A stretch of 64,000 nucleotides of DNA from Octopus sinensis (Eukaryota): assembly GCF_006345805.1 (NCBI RefSeq), contig NC_042998.1, positions 193,006,001 through 193,070,000 of the forward strand. Direction: 5' to 3'. Of the stretch, positions 2,636-59,046 are shown piece after piece. The notes under the pieces were generated by a model, which was not told the origin of the DNA, searched no databases, and saw only the letters and a program-made list of their open reading frames with translations. The first letter of the stretch is position 1; each line of letters begins with the position of its first letter. A program made the translations under genes and the position numbers.

Positions 2636-2991
2636 TAGATGAATTTTCTTTTCTTATAACAAAATTAGTTGGACAAACTTTGAAAAAAACAGCTGGATTC
2701 AAGAGGTGTGAAAAACAGGATGCTGGAGATAAAATATTGAGTTTTCATAAATATTTTGATGTTATTTACACGACTGATCTGCCAGGGAGTTTTTATGTTT
2801 GATCTATCAGCAAACTAGGTGCACACGGGCTAAAATAGGTACATATGGGCTAACAGAATTATCAATTGGAGAAGCTAAACCCTCGAAGATTAGATGATTT
2901 GTTACGTAGGTTGATAAATAAATGAATATTTTCAGTACTTCAAATGGTCAGTCGAACTGATAATATTAGCTTTATATTATCAAAATCATTT

Positions 2992-3240
2992 TAACAGAGA
3001 TGTACTTGCATAGCAAGTGACCTGATCTGAGATCGTGTGCTGGAGCAAAAACAATTGCAGCATAGAAGGTATTTATAAGCCATTTAAGAAACACACAAAA
3101 ACTGTTAGATTCACTTCAACATTTAAAGTTTTGTCAGTGAAAAGTTTGGGGTCTCAAAGCAACGAAAATATTTTGACAAATTAAATTTAAATGTTGAAGT
3201 GAATCTAATGGTTTTTGTGTTTCTTAAATGGATTATAAAC
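2992..3240. mobile_element. Fold-back PLE-like remnant with degenerate hammerhead (3130-3180); same family as 37091-37410
   Basis: Arms tttataagccatttaagaaacacacaaaaactgttagattcacttcaacatttaaa and its reverse complement at about 3186-3240; 5' part matches 37091 onward. Confidence 0.7.
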
Positions 3241-3273
3241 AAAATCATTTTTGTATTCACTTTTCCATGCTGG

Positions 3274-3613
3274 ACTGGACCTTTTTAAGACAATGTCTTA
3301 TGACTGGATGACTGGACCTTTTTAAGGCAATGTCTTGTGGCTGGATGACTGGACCTTTTTAAGGCAATGTCTTATGGCTGGATGACTGGACCTTTTTTAA
3401 GGCAATGTCTTATGGCTGGATGACTGGACCTTTTTTAAGGCAATGTCTTATGGCTGGATGACTGAACCTTTTTTAAGGCAATGTCTTATGGCTGGATGAC
3501 TGGACCTTTTTTAAGGCAATGTCTTATGGCTGGATGACTGAACCTTTTTTAAGGCAATGTCTTATGGCTGGATGACTGGACCTTTTTTAAGGCAATGTCT
3601 TATGGCTGGATGA
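3274..3613. repeat. 37-38-bp minisatellite, 9 copies
   Basis: Unit actg(g/a)accttttt(t)aaggcaatgtcttatggctggatg starting at 3274, 3311, 3348, 3385, 3423, 3461, 3499, 3537, 3575. Confidence 0.95.
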
Positions 3614-3706
3614 CCTCAGGACACACATATTTAAACATCATTAGTTCTATATTGTATTTTTAGTAGATTTTGAAATAATTCATACTTGATAGTAAGTCAT
3701 TTTTAA

Positions 3707-5323: not shown

Positions 5324-7625
5324 CAGTACTTCATAGATTAGATAAAATATCATAGGAATATATATTATACATAGGCTCATTTTTCCACTTTGAAATATAT
5401 TTGTATAATATTACATTTTTCTGTATGCAAGTGTGCGTGTGTGTAAATATTTGAAAGAATATGCATCCATAACTATCTGGAGAAGAAACCATTTACAGAA
5501 AGCATTGTGATTATAAAATGTTGACTTGAAATGAAATCAAAATGAACCTGGGAAATGAGAGAGAAAAGAATAAAAGAAAAAAAAATTGCCAAAATTTTAT
5601 GCAGTTGGAAAAAAAAAAAAAAAATCCAACATTGCCTTTAAACATTCTTCCATTGTTAATGAATTTCAAACTCTCAGGTCAGTGTGCCTCAAGGTATATT
5701 TAGTAACTGTTGTCTTTTCACATTATCATCTAAAATGATGGCTGAAACCAAGTCTGTTGGGTTAAAGGCAGTTAGAAATATTTCACATACATTCTAAAGA
5801 CATCAAATAAGGGAAAGAAAAAAAATCTCAAAATTTCAAAATAACAAAACAGAAGTAAATAAAAATTAAAAAAAAAAAACATATTAAGATAAGTCTAATT
5901 TTTTCCTCATGGGTATTTATATTCTATGAATACAAATACACAGTGTGTGTATATATGTGTGTATGCATGTGTATTTATATGTTTGTAAAAGAAAATTGGT
6001 ATACTAATTGCAATTGAAAAAAAATATTACTTTTTATTGGTTATATTTTGTGAATGTTTTCTAAGATGGTTAATTGATTAGTTGACTGATTGGCTTGACA
6101 ATAGGTTGTGTAGCTGTAATCTAAGCATTCCTTGACATCCAGGATCTCTCTTTGACTCATAAGTTGCTCTGAAATATATAAATCTCTACTTAGAATCATA
6201 GAAGAGAAACAGTGCCACAGTGTAAGCAGTATGGGTAACAGTTGCCAAAATTTAAAGTAGTTGGGGGAAAAGAAATTATTGACATTATGATAAAAAAAAC
6301 AATCTTTACAAAAAAAAAAAATTTTAAAGCATCTATGAAAGCAAAAAGAAACCCTTCAGAATCATTTTAATGTAATTTTGTTACAAATAGACATTATTTG
6401 TAATTAATTATTAATTAACTTTTGTTACATAATCAAACTGAGAATAAGTAGGTAAAGTAGAGAAATTGTTATTTTGATATAATTTGGCATCAGACAGCAA
6501 AGTAGGTATAAAGAACAGTGTGAAGTCAAAGCAATGTGATTTCTTTCATGTGGTGAACATTTAACAGAATGAAAATTTTATCTGAAGGGGTTACCACCTT
6601 CTTGAGAAATCCTTTCTGTCAATGCAGCACAATTCAACCACGACTGCAGAGAACCAGTCAGTTTACCGACAGATAGGCATATTCAAACTCAAAGAATGTC
6701 TATGATTTCTGTTAATCAAATTGGGAATTGTTAAGGGTCATCTAAAGAAGGGTTATAACCTGAAAAAAAATATTCATATTTGCATTGGAATCAGCCAACA
6801 TCTCCCAACATTAATTGTTCATCACATCAAAAAGACTAGCATTGCTTTCTCTAGCTTCGCTTCCTTCTTTATACACAAAACTATTTCGTTTTCACCCCCT
6901 GACATCTTTATAAATTGATACACTTAAAAATTAGATTCCTTTTTCTTTTGAAGTTTTACGAATTCCTAAACGAATTTTGTTGTATGGAATGACTAGATGA
7001 TTTTTCTGTTTTTTTGGGTTTTTTTTATCTACAAAAATGTTTTAACTACTTTTGTATTCTTTTCAATGTAAATCAACTTCTATATTTTTTGACTGTACCC
7101 TTACAAATCTAGCTAGACCTATTTTCTCAAACAGATATTCATGACTTAACCATAGCAGCTTCAATTATTTTCTGTCTCTCTCTCAGACAAATAAAACTGA
7201 AGTCAGCCTTAACCCAATCCTATAAAACATTAAAAGACTTGTGGTGCTCAAATACTACTCAATGTTTGTGGAGGACATCTGTATACGCATGAGTGAGTGT
7301 ATCAATGCAAGACATGAATGAATGAAAGTGTGCTTCTACAGGCCTGGTTCTTACACAGTCATTCAATTTTGTATATGATGATACTATTAACAAATTTAAG
7401 CCTTCAGTTGGTATACAACTGTAACTTTCATGGTTGTGGTATTTTTATCTATAAGGAGAGGCAACCTAACTGTTTTACAAAGAATGAAAGATTTTACGAT
7501 GTTTGTCCATTTTTCATGTATATTTGTGATTCCTTTTTTTGTTCCTTTTTATTTATTATTTTTGTTTGTTTTTTTTTTGTTTTTTCCATATGTATTATAG
7601 AAAAACATAAATCTGTCATTTCATC
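5324..7625 (+). other. Putative long 3' UTR of the innexin
   Basis: About 2.3 kb of AT-rich unique sequence without the SINEs/MITEs that fill the rest of the window; AATAAA hexamers near 5569, 5858 and 7190. The 3' end is not defined. Confidence 0.45.
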
Positions 7626-20859: not shown

Positions 20860-21377
20860 CAATAATCCCTCGCCATATCGCGGTTTATTATTTAAGCTTA
20901 CGCCGATTCCTCTGTGGTGTTTGGCATTTACAATAAAATGAATATATACAATTGTTATATTTCGGAATGGTCATTTTGCCAGTTTAGCCAATAAAAACAC
21001 GCGCACTATATATTTGGTGTTACTTTGGTTCAGTGTTATTTATTTTTTACATTAATATTAATCTTATGGCCGAAATAAGATTAAGATTAAGATTAATGTA
21101 AAAAATAAATAACAGTGAAGCAAAGTAACACCAAATATATAGTGCGTGTGTTTTTATTGGCTAAACTGGCAAAATGACCATTCCGAAATATAACAATATC
21201 TGTTTCAACACACGACTTCACATAAAAAATCTTGCACAACAAATATATAAACGTACAAATGTATACAAATTATAAAAATAACTATAAAATATATACAGTA
21301 CTGTTTCTACTTAGCAGATATTCACCAATCGCAGCGTGTTTTGGAACGTAGCACCTGCGATAGTCAAGGGATTACTG
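20860..21377. mobile_element. Tc1/mariner-superfamily (pogo/Tigger-like) MITE with a nested fold-back
   Basis: TA|caataatccctcgccatatcgcgg ... cctgcgatagtcaagggattactg|TA. Confidence 0.7.
20951..21197. repeat. Near-perfect fold-back, about 115-bp arms with 7-nt loop
   Basis: attgttatatttcggaatggtcattttgccag ... ctggcaaaatgaccattccgaaatataacaat; centre atcttat-ggccgaa-ataagat. Confidence 0.95.
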
Positions 21378-35546: not shown

Positions 35547-36197
35547 GGAGGCGCAATGGCCCAGTGGTTAGGGCAGCGGACTCGCGGTCGTAGGATCGCG
35601 GTTTCGATTCCCAGACCGGGCGTTGTGAGTGTTTATTGAGCGAAAACACCTAAAAGCTCCACGAGGCTCCGGCAGGGGATGGTGGTGGTCCTTGCTGTAC
35701 TCTTTCACCACAACTTTCTCTCACTCTTACTTCCTGTTTCTTCTGTTGTACATGTATTTCAAAGGGCCGGCCTTGTCACTCTCTGTGTCACGCTGAATAT
35801 CCCCGAGAACTATGTTAAGGGTACACGTGTCTGTGGAGTGCTCAGCCACTTACACGTTAATTTCACGAGCAGGCTGTTCCGTTGATTCGGATCAACCGGA
35901 ACCCTCGTCGTCGTAACCGACGGAGTGCTTCTAGGCTCCGGCAGGGGATGGTGGTGATCCCTGCTGTACTCTTTCACCACAACTTTCTCTTACTTTTACT
36001 TCCTGTTTCTGTTGTACCTGTATTTCAAAGGGCCGGCCTTGTCACTCTCTGTGTCACGCTGAATATCCCCGAGAACTATGTTAAGGGTACACGTGTCTGT
36101 GGAGTGCTCAGCCACATACACGTTAATTTCACGAGCAGGCTGTTCCATTGATCGGATCAACCGGAACCCTCGTCGTCGGAACTAACGGAGTGCTTCC
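35547..36197 (+). mobile_element. SINE family C with tandem duplication of its about 270-bp body
   Basis: tRNA-like head 35547-35620; aggctccggcaggggatggtgg...cggagtgcttc occurs twice (about 35664 and 35933). Confidence 0.85.
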
Positions 36198-36590: not shown

Positions 36591-36986
36591 ACTAGCAGTA
36601 TCGCCCGGCGTTGCTCGGGTTTGTAAGGGAAATAATTATATAAGCATTTTTAGAGATGTAAAGTATAATAGCCATCTCAATATGGCTAACCACAAAGGGG
36701 GACGGGTGTTACTGTAGCTTTTTACGTTCTGAGATTTAATAATAAATTTTAGAGAGTTACTTCCCTTATATATGTCAAAAATGGATTAAAAATGGGAAAA
36801 ATTGATGGTAAATTTTTTTTAAATCGTAGACTCATCGTAGACGCGCGCTAATACCCAGACGGTCTCGATATGAATCACGACTATAAGATACCCGGTTTTG
36901 GTTAAACTGCACCGCAAAATGTGGGAGTAGTTAGGAATCTAAATCGTAGGAGACAGACACACAACCTCACTTTTATATATAAAGAT
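36591..36986 (+). mobile_element. Helentron/DINE-1-like non-autonomous element
   Basis: actagcagtatcgcccggcgttgctcggg (terminal hairpin) ... agacagacacac ... cttttatatataaagat; inverted copy at 60776-61172. Confidence 0.65.
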
Positions 36987-37090
36987 TTCCTCTATTTACA
37001 TAATATTGAGGTCTCTTTCTTTCTTTTGTTATCTTACTGTTTTTACCAATATACATATATATATATATATATATATAAATATATATATAG

Positions 37091-37410
37091 TTACAGAGAT
37101 GTACTTGCATAGCAAGTGACTTGATCTGAGATCGTGTGCTGGAACGAAAACAGTTGCAGCGTTGAAGGTGTTTATAAGCCATTTAAGAAACACACAAAAA
37201 CCGTTAGATTCACTTCAACATTTAAATTTAATTTGTCAAAATATTTTCGTCGCTTTGAGACCGGGACCTGTTAGCACGATATTTTTGTCAGTGAACAGGT
37301 CGCGGTCTCAAAGCGACGAAAATATTTTGGCAAATTAAATTTAAATGTTGAAGTGAATGTAACGGTTTTTGTGTGTTTCTTAAATGGCTTACAAACACCT
37401 TCCACGCTGC
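37091..37410. mobile_element. Fold-back PLE-like remnant
   Basis: Arms about 37154-37272 and 37294-37411 are reverse complements; flanked by (TA)n. Confidence 0.8.
37284..37334 (+). ncRNA. Hammerhead motif with G3:C8 core covariation
   Basis: UUUGUCA-GUGAACA-G-GUCGC-ggucucaaa-GCGAC-GAAA-AUAU-U-U-UGGCAAA. Confidence 0.65.
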
Positions 37411-39087
37411 AATATATATATACACACATATATATATATGTATGTATGTATGTGTGTATATGTGTATGCATGTATGTGTGTGTGTGTGTGTGCGTGTCTG
37501 TGCTTGTGATTGTCCTCCACCACTGCTTGACAACGAATGTTGGTTTGTTTACATCCCTGTCACCTAGTGGTTTGACAAAGGAAACAGATAGAATAAGTAC
37601 AATGCTTACAAAAATAAAACTGGAGTTGATTCATTAAACTACAATTCTTCAAGGCATTGCCCCAGCATGGTCACAGAGCAATGGCTGGAAAAAGCAGAAG
37701 AATAAAAGAATATATTCTCTGCTTTGGTCTTATGTTCAAGGCATGAGAAAGCTTGAGTTTACATGAGAAGGCCTAACAGACCTGGTAGAAACAGCAGCCA
37801 AATCTCCCTCAAATCACACCTTACTGTCTTATGTATGTATATATATATATGAGCCAATGAGGGGGACCTCTACATGGTAGCTAGACCTGGTAGAAATAGC
37901 AGCCAAATCTCCCTCAAATCACACCTTACTGTCTTATCTTTCTGCTACTTGGATATAGGTGTTATATTCGTCGTAAAAAACTTTCCTGTCACACACTCAC
38001 GCACACGCACACACACACACACACACGCACCCTCACACACACACACACGCGCGCACACACACACACTCACACACACGCACGTTAGCTTACAATTTTATTT
38101 ATATATTTGCGTGTTTATGTGTGGAAAATGGAAGTGGGAGGCAGAGTGAAAGAATCACTCACTACAGTAAGTGAATTACTTTCATTTTATTCGTTGCCCA
38201 CTGTGTGTGTGCGTTTGCGTGTGGTGTAAACCAGACTAAGAAAAGCATTTGACACACACACCAGAATGTGAGTTTTCTGTAAATTTTGCTTAATTGGAGT
38301 TTAAATTTTAAAAACTGGACCTGGCATGACGCGATGCATTGTACTCTTAAAAATGCTAGGTAAATTGTAATTGAAGAAATCCTATATTGTAGATTTCTAT
38401 AACTCCCAATGGGAGGCAGATAAAATCTGCCTTTTATAATAAGAGATAGAAGATTACGTGTATATTGATAAATCTCAGCGAGTTATAAACAGTAGCGGTA
38501 ACACATCGTGACGCATATTTGCCATTTGAATATGGTTAACCCCTAAGGGTGGATGCTACTGTAGTTTGTAGCCCCAAGAAGATATCTCCTCCAGCTGGCT
38601 ATAGACACACTATCTGTGCCCTCTCAGTATTTGTGAAGGGAAGTCATCCTCCCCGTCTTCAACTCAAGACACCGTTTTGAGATAAAAAGGAGCAACAAGT
38701 TTATTGACAGAACTCAAACTATGAATCTATTGCTTGGCAGATGTTCACATCAATGCTTATTTCATAGTATCTAAAGTGAAAAGAGCAACTGACAGTTGAT
38801 CTTGGTGTTATCAATAACACAGTCATTGAGCAAGCCATAGGTTTGTAGTTTGAGTTTTATTAGTTCATCGTTGTTAACAGAACTATCTGCTGTGTATTTT
38901 TTCAGAGAACTTTTTCTACGATGTATATAAAGTGCAGTGGATTTTTAAAGGAAACAAGAACAACCTTTAAGCATAATTGGTTGGAGGTTATCTGGATTTA
39001 GATCAAGCAATGAGAATGTATGTAATATTTGCAAGATAAGAGACTAAAGGGAGAAAAGTAGTATATATATATTGTACGAAAGCTAAT

Positions 39088-56845: not shown

Positions 56846-57445
56846 GGCGGCGAGCTGGCAGAAACGTTTGCACGCCGGGCGAAATGCGTAGCCGTATTTC
56901 GTCTGCCGTTATGTTCTGAGTTCAAATTCTGTGGAGGTCGACTTTGCCTTTCATCCTTTCGGGGTCGATGAATTAAGAACCAGTTACGCACTGGGGTCGA
57001 TATAATCGACTTAATCCCTTTGTCTGTCCTTGTTTGTCTTCTCTGTGTTTAGCCCCTTGTGGGTAGTAAAGAAATAGGTATTTCGTCTGCCGTTACGTTC
57101 TGAGTTCAAATTCCGCCGAGGTCGACTTTGCCTTTCATCCTTTCGAGGTCGATAAATTAAGTACCAGTTACGCACTGGGGTCGATGTAATCGACTAGATC
57201 CGTTTGTCTGTCCTTGTTTGTCCTCTCTGTGTTTAGCCCCTTGTGGGTAGTAAAGAAATAGGTGTTTCGTCTGTCGTTACGTTCTGAGTTCAAATTCTGC
57301 CGAGGTCGACTTTGCCTTTCATCCTTTCGGGGTCGATAAATTAAGTACCAGTTACGCACTGGGGTCGATGTAATCGACTAGATCCGTTTGTCTGTCCTTG
57401 TTTGTCCTCTCTGTGTTTAGCCCTTTGTGGGTAGTAAAGAAATAG
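56846..57445 (+). mobile_element. SINE family B, head plus 3 tandem units
   Basis: Same 180-184-bp unit and junction as the 41074 array. Confidence 0.9.
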
Positions 57446-58630
57446 ATATAGTGATGAAAAAAAAAAAGAACACGGGGCTACGATGTCTTGGATATGTTAG
57501 AACAATAGAAGAAGAGAAGAAGAAGAAGAAATGACCTAAAGAAGCAGCCCTGCGTTTGTTGAGTAGAAGTTGTAGTGTGTTGCAGGTGTTAGAGCGACTA
57601 TTTGCCAATCAGACAGATGGACTTTGCTTTTGCATGCGGTTGAGCAAGATTGTGCATGTAGTGTAAGCACCATCCTAGATATGTAATACATTAATGGGTT
57701 TTTTAACTTGATCTTTGCAGACAGTCAGCATCTTACTAGAGCTGAAATATTTTATAGAAGCTTTGTCTTTGGCATGCTGCTTTGCCAGATGTGTGGTTTC
57801 CATGGAGATAAATACCATCCTTATGAATCCTTGTGATTTGGTAAAAGAACAATAAATAATGAAGTAAATTAATACCAAGGGAATATAACGCCAGTCCATA
57901 ACAATTACATACTTTTTAGAGTTCTGATCTTACCAGGGAAATATTTCAATTAGTTAATTGTATGAATTTCCCATACAAACATAAAATTTACATTTTTGTA
58001 TCTCGTCATATTTTGTCTAAGAATGTATGTATGCTAAATAAGAAAATACATACATATATACACATATATAAATGTACACATACATTCATGTATATATATA
58101 TGCTTCTTTCTCTCGAAGCAAAACAAATATGAGACATCAATGAATAGGAAATAAGAAAACACCTAGATTTGACAATCGATACAGTCTCTACGAAATTAAT
58201 ATGGAAAATGTGACTCACATCATAAGCAGCTGTCTGAAACTGTCAACATGGTAATATCAACCTTTGAGTTATGATCTAATGACCGAAACACCGCACAGCG
58301 GGGGAATAGTTTCGAAGTTCAACAGAAAAAAAGGTTACAACGACGTAGAGGGCGCACACACCTTTGATACCAATAAATTACTGAAGAAACGTTCCAGTCA
58401 AAAGCTTTGTATAATACATATGAATAATCGGCAAGAGACATTAAGAGAAAAGAAAAGCTGTACACTAACAGAAATTAGTTGTCCAGTCGAAGTTAACATA
58501 TGCAATATAAACAAAGAAAACATATTGTGCATATATGCATACATGCATGGACACATAACGCATACGTACTCTTTAATGTTACATCACGTCACATTTAGAA
58601 GGTTATGCTTTTGTAATACAAAGGGAGATA

Positions 58631-59046
58631 TCTATTTCTTTACTACCCACAAGGGCTAAACACTGAGGGGACAAACAAGGACAGACAAACGGATTAAGTC
58701 GATTACATCGACCCCAGTGCGTAACTGGTACTTAATTTATCGACCCCGAAAGGATGAAAGGTAAAGTCGACCTCGGCGGAATTTGAACTCACAACGTAAC
58801 GGCAGACGAAATACCTATTTCTTTACTACCCGCAAGGGGCTAAACACAGAGGGGACAAACAAGGACAGACGAACGGATTAAGTCGATTACATCGACTCCA
58901 GTACGTAACTGGTACTTTATTTATCGACCCCGAAAGGATGAAAGGCAAAATCGACCTCGGCGGAATTTGAACTCAGAACGTAGCGGCAGACGAAATATCG
59001 CTAAGCATTTCGCCCGGCGTGCTAACGTTTCTGCCAGCTCGCCGCC
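58631..59046 (-). mobile_element. SINE family B, head plus 2 tandem units
   Basis: Reverse complement of family B; aaagggagata occurs on both flanks (58621 and about 59051), a likely TSD. Confidence 0.9.

Follow-up and report, generated by a model that had tools for sequence, protein, structure and literature searches.

Is a hammerhead ribozyme whose core reads GUGAACA, with the tertiary pair C3-G8 swapped to G3-C8, a natural variant or a product of decay? The question is raised by positions 37284-37334 of the window, by which we mean the whole 64,000-nt stretch of Octopus sinensis DNA analyzed here.

The motif and its core

A sequence-only reading had laid out helices I and II, the core, GAAA, AAUAUU and UUU in this segment, with G3-C8 in place of C3-G8. 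All of these parts were found where that reading had put them, including both exchanged letters. It had also described everything outside the core as hammerhead-like, which held for the helices, GAAA and the triplet but overlooked an extra G at 37298. The resulting layout is as follows.

37284..37334, + strand: minimal type I hammerhead with a G3-C8 core, predicted cut between 37327 and 37328
37284-37290 and 37328-37334: helix I, UUUGUCA/UGGCAAA, 7 bp
37291-37297: core GUGAACA, with G3 at 37291 and C8 at 37296
37291..37296, + strand: swapped tertiary pair G3 (37291)/C8 (37296), proposed from the family consensus and from sister families with C3-G8 and U3-A8
37298: extra G, between A9 and G10.1
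37299-37303 and 37313-37317: helix II, GUCGC/GCGAC, 5 bp
37318-37321: GAAA
37321-37326: palindrome AAUAUU (helix III)
37325-37327: triplet UUU

The hammerhead core letters U4 G5 A6 N7, A9, G12 A13 A14 and A15.1-U16.1 are all present, whereas the literal C3 and G8 of the CUGANGA consensus are replaced by G3 and C8. A relaxed hammerhead descriptor gave four matches in the window, and only 37284-37334 passed the strict definition (a Watson-Crick 3-8 pair, A9, helix II of at least 5 bp and helix I of at least 6 bp). One strict match was seen in 60 first-order Markov copies of the window. Rfam reported no hammerhead family at E<=10 for positions 37090-37420; for the whole window it gave miRNA-type hairpins below the gathering score and no hammerhead among the 150 of 271 matches listed.

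Folding was predicted for the isolated motif and for the terminal repeat (pLTR) of autonomous copies, which are described below. Helices I and II and the G10.1-C11.1 pair form in both, and in the autonomous pLTR the predicted pairing probabilities of helices I and II are 0.71-1.0. The isolated 51-mer has a folding z of -2.14, and the motif of an autonomous copy has a z of -3.66. The NUH triplet (UUU) and the palindromic helix III (AAUAUU) are present, the helix III duplex being marginal at -0.2 kcal/mol. Dimer cofolding did not produce a dimeric hammerhead and gave intermolecular helices I and II instead.

The host element is a Penelope-like retroelement

Judged from its sequence context, the motif belongs to a Penelope-like retroelement (PLE), as the hammerhead of its pLTR. 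Near-intact autonomous copies carry a long frame with a reverse transcriptase (RT) plus GIY-YIG at the C terminus (P0001, 1042 aa). In a younger subfamily the near-intact ORFs are 96-98% identical to one another; in the window's own subfamily the longer copies carry broken ORFs. One locus, L148, is built as pLTR-ORF-pLTR with a single frameshift and has G3-C8 in both pLTRs. Its ATG lies 92 nt after G3, and the ORF starts inside the pLTR. The G3-C8 motif was found at eight of ten young-subfamily loci (L142-L149, L164 and L165), the two without it being L147 and L164.

The RT motifs of P0001 were read by eye, and we take the enzyme to be of the PLE type. Its linker, CX3CxxC, is common to the Neptune and Nematis clades. 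Pfam and PDB searches with pieces of the ORF and with P0001 returned nothing significant. P0001 is a single ORF, and its C-terminal GIY-YIG with CCHH was likewise read by eye, following endonuclease (EN) motif definitions in the part of the source available (PMC8557442). On the 3' side, copies stop at either of two preferred points that lie about 60 nt from each other, which marks an optional 3' tail with two RT start sites. The DNA beyond is AT-rich or (TA)n, and copies frequently have an inverted, 5'-cut partner. A two-ended 3' tail and inverted insertions are PLE signatures in the available portions of two papers (PMC11167929, PMC8557442).

Two other identities were considered. A non-LTR retrozyme was rejected, since the copies occur singly or as inverted pairs and not as head-to-tail units, and since an autonomous ORF exists. 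A MITE reading was rejected as well. Broken ORF copies of the window's subfamily also occur in large duplicated blocks (L106, L113, L116, L162 and similar loci), several of them near contig ends, where the hammerhead core is deleted or G3·G8.

The window copy

The copy that raised the question is embedded in other repeats.

37273..37413, + strand: forward pLTR fragment of PLE subfamily A1; its end is the first preferred 3' end, with (TA)n next to it
37384..37413, + strand: opening ten codons of the element's ORF and no more, 56 nt past the predicted cut and with the same start as in L148
37091..37272, - strand: inverted, 5'-cut pLTR copy (mirror arm) of the same insertion, starting at A6
36592..38446, - strand: Helitron-like non-autonomous repeat carrying the hairpin as cargo, with 5' TC, 3' hairpin + CTAG and an A|T target
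2994..3241, no strand assigned: second, independent, decayed inverted insertion of the family, with a hammerhead remnant at 3130-3180

Positions 37284-37413 match the autonomous pLTR of L148 at 90%, and the ORF body of the element is absent from the window. The mirror arm continues through the tail of about 60 nt up to the second preferred 3' end, and together the two arms form a 119-bp hairpin. For a transcript across both arms the predicted hairpin has an energy of -208 kcal/mol and the hammerhead helices have a probability of 0.0. Since it is predicted to be locked in this hairpin, the window copy is likely inert.

Two local observations had been offered as signs that G3-C8 is a family trait. 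One was the mirror arm, which does show C8 but begins at A6 and, therefore, lacks G3; as an inverted copy of the same insertion it is not an independent witness. The other was the copy at 3130-3180. Its G3 (3137) was confirmed, but position 8 is A (3142), so that the swap is not found there. This copy has U at 10.1 and a broken helix II. It has decayed to G3·A8 and, thus, is unable to show a 3-8 pair.

About 544 copies in the genome have the exact hairpin junction of the window. Their carrier, judged from the 30 closest loci, is a 1.9-kb repeat with Helitron-like ends. Its CTAG end adjoins A in 30/30 loci; the other end was found in 22/30, with T next to it in 20. We take the carrier to be a non-autonomous Helitron, the defining features of which are 5' TC, 3' hairpin + CTAG and an A/T insertion. 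Since an exact junction is shared inside a Helitron-like repeat, the 544 or so matches represent one insertion copied as cargo. The window copy is thus likely an inert passenger that a Helitron-like element would have multiplied.

The carrier at 36592-38446 also holds other cargo and has a variable internal tandem near 37778-37939, and Helitron copies stand in tandem at L010 and L025. Tandem arrays elsewhere in the window lie at 3273-3614 (38 nt), 774-1016 (42 nt), 35664-36196 (266 nt) and, with a period of 184 nt each, 56894-57449 and 58628-58997. The 184-nt units resemble SINE pieces.

Genome-wide state of positions 3 and 8

Neither local support holds, and the trait was judged from the genome. 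When positions 3 and 8 were left free in the A1 pattern, 2827 matches were found in the 2.7-Gb genome, of which 2699 had G3 (128 exceptions) and 2661 had C8 (166 exceptions). Removal of the shared-junction copies left G3 near 94% and C8 near 93%. The search patterns fixed helix II and GAAA and, therefore, these counts are no independent test of those parts. A search anchored downstream of the motif and blind to the core gave the same G3-C8 consensus. The younger subfamily, found with a loop-8 pattern and mostly A2, gave 1998 matches, and the first 100 listed included 100 with G3 and 97 with C8. In DNA contigs from four runs under four organism labels, no alternative letter reached 5% at position 3 or 8.

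The family consensus is, thus, G3-C8 and neither C3/G8 nor unpaired. The claim that the swap is a family trait and not decay is borne out, on the strength of the genome-wide counts instead of the two local observations. The claim that the motif escapes CUGANGA-type searches is borne out as well, and Rfam gave no match. In G3-C8 the Penelope pLTR hammerhead has a natural variant that is real, old and stable.

Covariation across sister lineages

Sister elements were compared using 40 loci fetched around RT matches. At the same place in the pLTR, C3-G8 stands in family B (about 50-55% protein identity), whose young form has C9; family C (about 48-52% protein identity) reads U3-A8 and also has the UUU triplet. 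Families B and C share the extra G, G10.1-U10.2 and a compensated helix II, and families A, B and C all retain G5, A6, G12, A13, A14 and an NUH triplet. With C3-G8 or U3-A8 in sister families beside G3-C8, three Watson-Crick pairs occur at 3-8. Complementarity is, thus, kept with covariation (G-C, C-G and U-A in sister lineages), through few independent events.

Pattern searches gave a similar picture. Non-G3 motifs with the family helix II numbered 10038, compared to 34 in the control, and the first 100 of them, counted by hand, comprised 38 C-G, 49 U-A and 13 unpaired. G3-C8 is also found in an older group in which N7 is C and the loops vary; downstream of the motif, its identity to family A is about 70%. 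When N7 was set to C and 3 and 8 were left open, Watson-Crick pairs were found in 68/94 matches, compared to 38 expected from the marginals; these were 43 G-C, 20 C-G, 4 U-A and 1 A-U. Each base of the old group is retained in about 81% of copies, which fits neutral decay. Within-family counts are counts of copies and not of events.

The number of events was considered with an unrooted tree of 60 rows (65 were chosen and 5 without a pattern match were dropped) in which positions 3 and 8 were masked. All 20 C3-G8 rows fell opposite all 25 G3-C8 rows (support 96/97); the U3-A8 family fell on the G3-C8 side, where it is weakly placed. Two double changes between lineages would be enough to account for the three states.

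Hammerheads near L154, L155, L157, L158, L164 and L168 were left out of the comparison, as they are not shared within an ORF family and were judged to belong to other elements. At L157 (about 5900-7200), units of about 364 nt, each containing a U3-A8 hammerhead, are repeated in tandem in a retrozyme-like manner. Behind PLE ORFs at L164 (about 5500-6400) and L158 (about 2900-3400) lie further families of inverted repeats, whose hammerheads are canonical (CUGAUGA). No hammerhead was found at L166, a 69% relative whose 3' end is cut. Young family B copies (L150:3838-4007 (-), L153, L161 and others) have C at core position 9, and their older relatives have A9. The C9 hints that constraint on the core is relaxed in these elements.

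Copy ends and footprints of cleavage

If RNA cut at the predicted site had given rise to most insertions, copies might be expected to start there. The 5' ends of copies showed no pile-up at the cut. When copies anchored downstream of the site were counted by hand, about 3 in the first 100 had their start at the cut or beyond it, and 2/142 family-A matches start within -5..+3 of it, in a sample that favors copies with the core. The corresponding total for family B was set aside, as (TA)n matches dominated it. Many copies start 15-25 nt upstream of helix I. In longer copies a sequence resembling a branch point and a 3' splice site lies at this start zone, just upstream of the commonest starting point. 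The same type of sequence was seen at L087, L094 and 93 pattern matches and may belong to a pLTR intron as in Drosophila Penelope.

Mismatched cores also bear on this point. Among the first 100 non-C8 copies 37 had G8, and among the first 100 non-G3 copies 15 had C (p=0.0006). The insertion L120 has G3·G8 in both arms. The excess of G8 and the two arms of L120 therefore indicate that mismatched templates were mobilized.

Contigs from four runs that we guessed to be RNA cover the pLTR with no joints or end pile-ups, although contigs cannot show cleavage, splicing or strand. Elsewhere in the window, 20942-21199 is an inverted pair of family B (C3-G8) pLTR-tail pieces. Its forward arm starts exactly at the predicted cut of family B, which, as a single case, may be due to chance.

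Interpretation

The reading that we consider probable is that the motif is a PLE pLTR hammerhead in which the G3-C8 core likely preserves the tertiary pair at 3-8 and slow self-cleavage is predicted, with the window copy likely inert. G3-C8 would preserve the tertiary pair, and a slow cut may occur after U17 of the UUU triplet, either in a dimer, for which the AAUAUU palindrome could be used, or with the aid of the element's protein. From the copy ends, most insertions would appear to derive from RNA that was uncut at the predicted site. Cleavage would then be a side or late step that is not required for each jump.

The same copy ends, together with the mobility of G3·G8 templates, could also mean that the pLTR carries a folded signal that keeps the hammerhead shape, including the 3-8 pair, with negligible cleavage in vivo. 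Such a signal might bind protein or control translation or splicing just upstream of the ORF; the motif lies 92 nt before the ATG and beside the splice-site-like sequence where many copies start. In the available part of a study of the Anolis PAc PLE, insertion is normal with a mutated hammerhead, and the cut site is not the end of any RNA-seq read (PMC11167929). We nevertheless find this explanation unlikely. The 3-8 pair is part of the active tertiary fold in the portions available of two papers (PMC3088659, PMC8495972), and G5, A6, G12, A13, A14 and the NUH triplet persist across families A, B and C.

Another possible explanation is that the ribozyme is dead, with two neutral substitutions fixed in one master element and inherited, and that the complementarity is a coincidence. 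It takes only about two double changes at the level of lineages, a random double change gives a Watson-Crick pair about 1 time in 3, and C9 in family B and G3·G8 in a sub-lineage are cases in which an altered core was able to spread. Yet A1, A2, D, B, E and C, the main lineages sampled, all have a Watson-Crick pair at 3-8, against a background of variation in N7, loop II and helices I and III. G3-C8 also spans lineages with flanks about 70% identical, and on this evidence we regard a dead ribozyme as very improbable. A chance look-alike within a MITE-like palindrome might be proposed from the 119-bp inverted repeat and the lack of an Rfam hammerhead. This reading was already refuted by the motif's presence in both pLTRs of an RT-GIY-YIG element, with sister families canonical at that place, and by the masked tree; the scarcity of strict matches in the Markov control also speaks against it, and we give it almost no weight.

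A further step would be to treat G3-C8 as a working natural hammerhead class, within one PLE clade that uses three Watson-Crick pairs at 3-8. We put this forward tentatively, as a possibility less likely than not to hold. If true, a lineage with over 4,000 copies here would be invisible to CUGANGA descriptors, and PLE families reported as lacking hammerheads from a "cuganga" search, in the part of that paper available (PMC8557442), may carry swapped cores. The family also shows that hammerheads are undercounted by standard descriptors and Rfam. A G-C family beside C-G and U-A sisters offers a natural series in which to ask how much catalytic speed is needed, and such a series bears on the question of what the PLE hammerhead does. 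No new kind of system is added. In the literature searched, the only natural change at 3-8 so far is U-A, and G-C is a laboratory rescue mutant.

Comparison with known systems

No record of a natural G3-C8 pair was found in the literature searched, with partial coverage of key hammerhead papers and their supplements, which leaves its priority uncertain. The available part of a 2026 bioRxiv retrozyme preprint does not mention the core variants searched for.

The host element shares with Neptune/Nematis-type EN+ PLEs the RT, the CX2-5CxxC linker, the C-terminal GIY-YIG with CCHH, a pLTR hammerhead, (TA)n targets and inverted insertions, as far as the available text describes them (Craig et al. 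2021, PMC8557442). The hammerhead core differs, and the likeness is one of features.

The closest ribozymes are the min-hammerheads of metazoan PLEs, which, in the portions of the source available, likewise occupy the two pLTRs as well as inverted 5' copies (Cervera and de la Pena 2014, PMC4209133). Shared traits are an extra nucleotide at 9/10.1, G10.1-C11.1, a tiny palindromic helix III and a common U17, and the AAUU/UUU end recurs in one Crassostrea example. PLE min-hammerheads in the literature are known to have an extra nucleotide, U17 and a UUU triplet. In contrast to the motif described here, G3 is absent from all 56 rows of their Fig. S3 (53 C3, 3 U3), and U3-A8 is the sole core covariation reported in the available text. 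Their extra nucleotide has a consensus above 80% of H and not G (one row has G), and helix I of the present motif, at 7 bp, is longer than theirs. Natural U3-A8 variants described by Perreault et al. (2011, PMC3088659) are also a compensatory change at 3-8, and the only natural variation at these positions reported in the part available. They arose by transitions, whereas the swap here exchanges purine and pyrimidine by two transversions and is one of three pairs in one element clade.

The same G3-C8 pair is known from engineered C3G/G8C mutants with partial activity, in the available parts of three papers (PMC11167929, PMC8495972, PMC3884650). In the Anolis PAc PLE hammerhead, C3G/G8C partly rescues the ribozyme while the single mutants are dead; that hammerhead depends on the element's protein and is not required when insertion takes place in vitro (Frangieh et al. 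2024, PMC11167929). The engineered pair was made in the laboratory, whereas here a young and abundant autonomous family has G3-C8 as its wild type.
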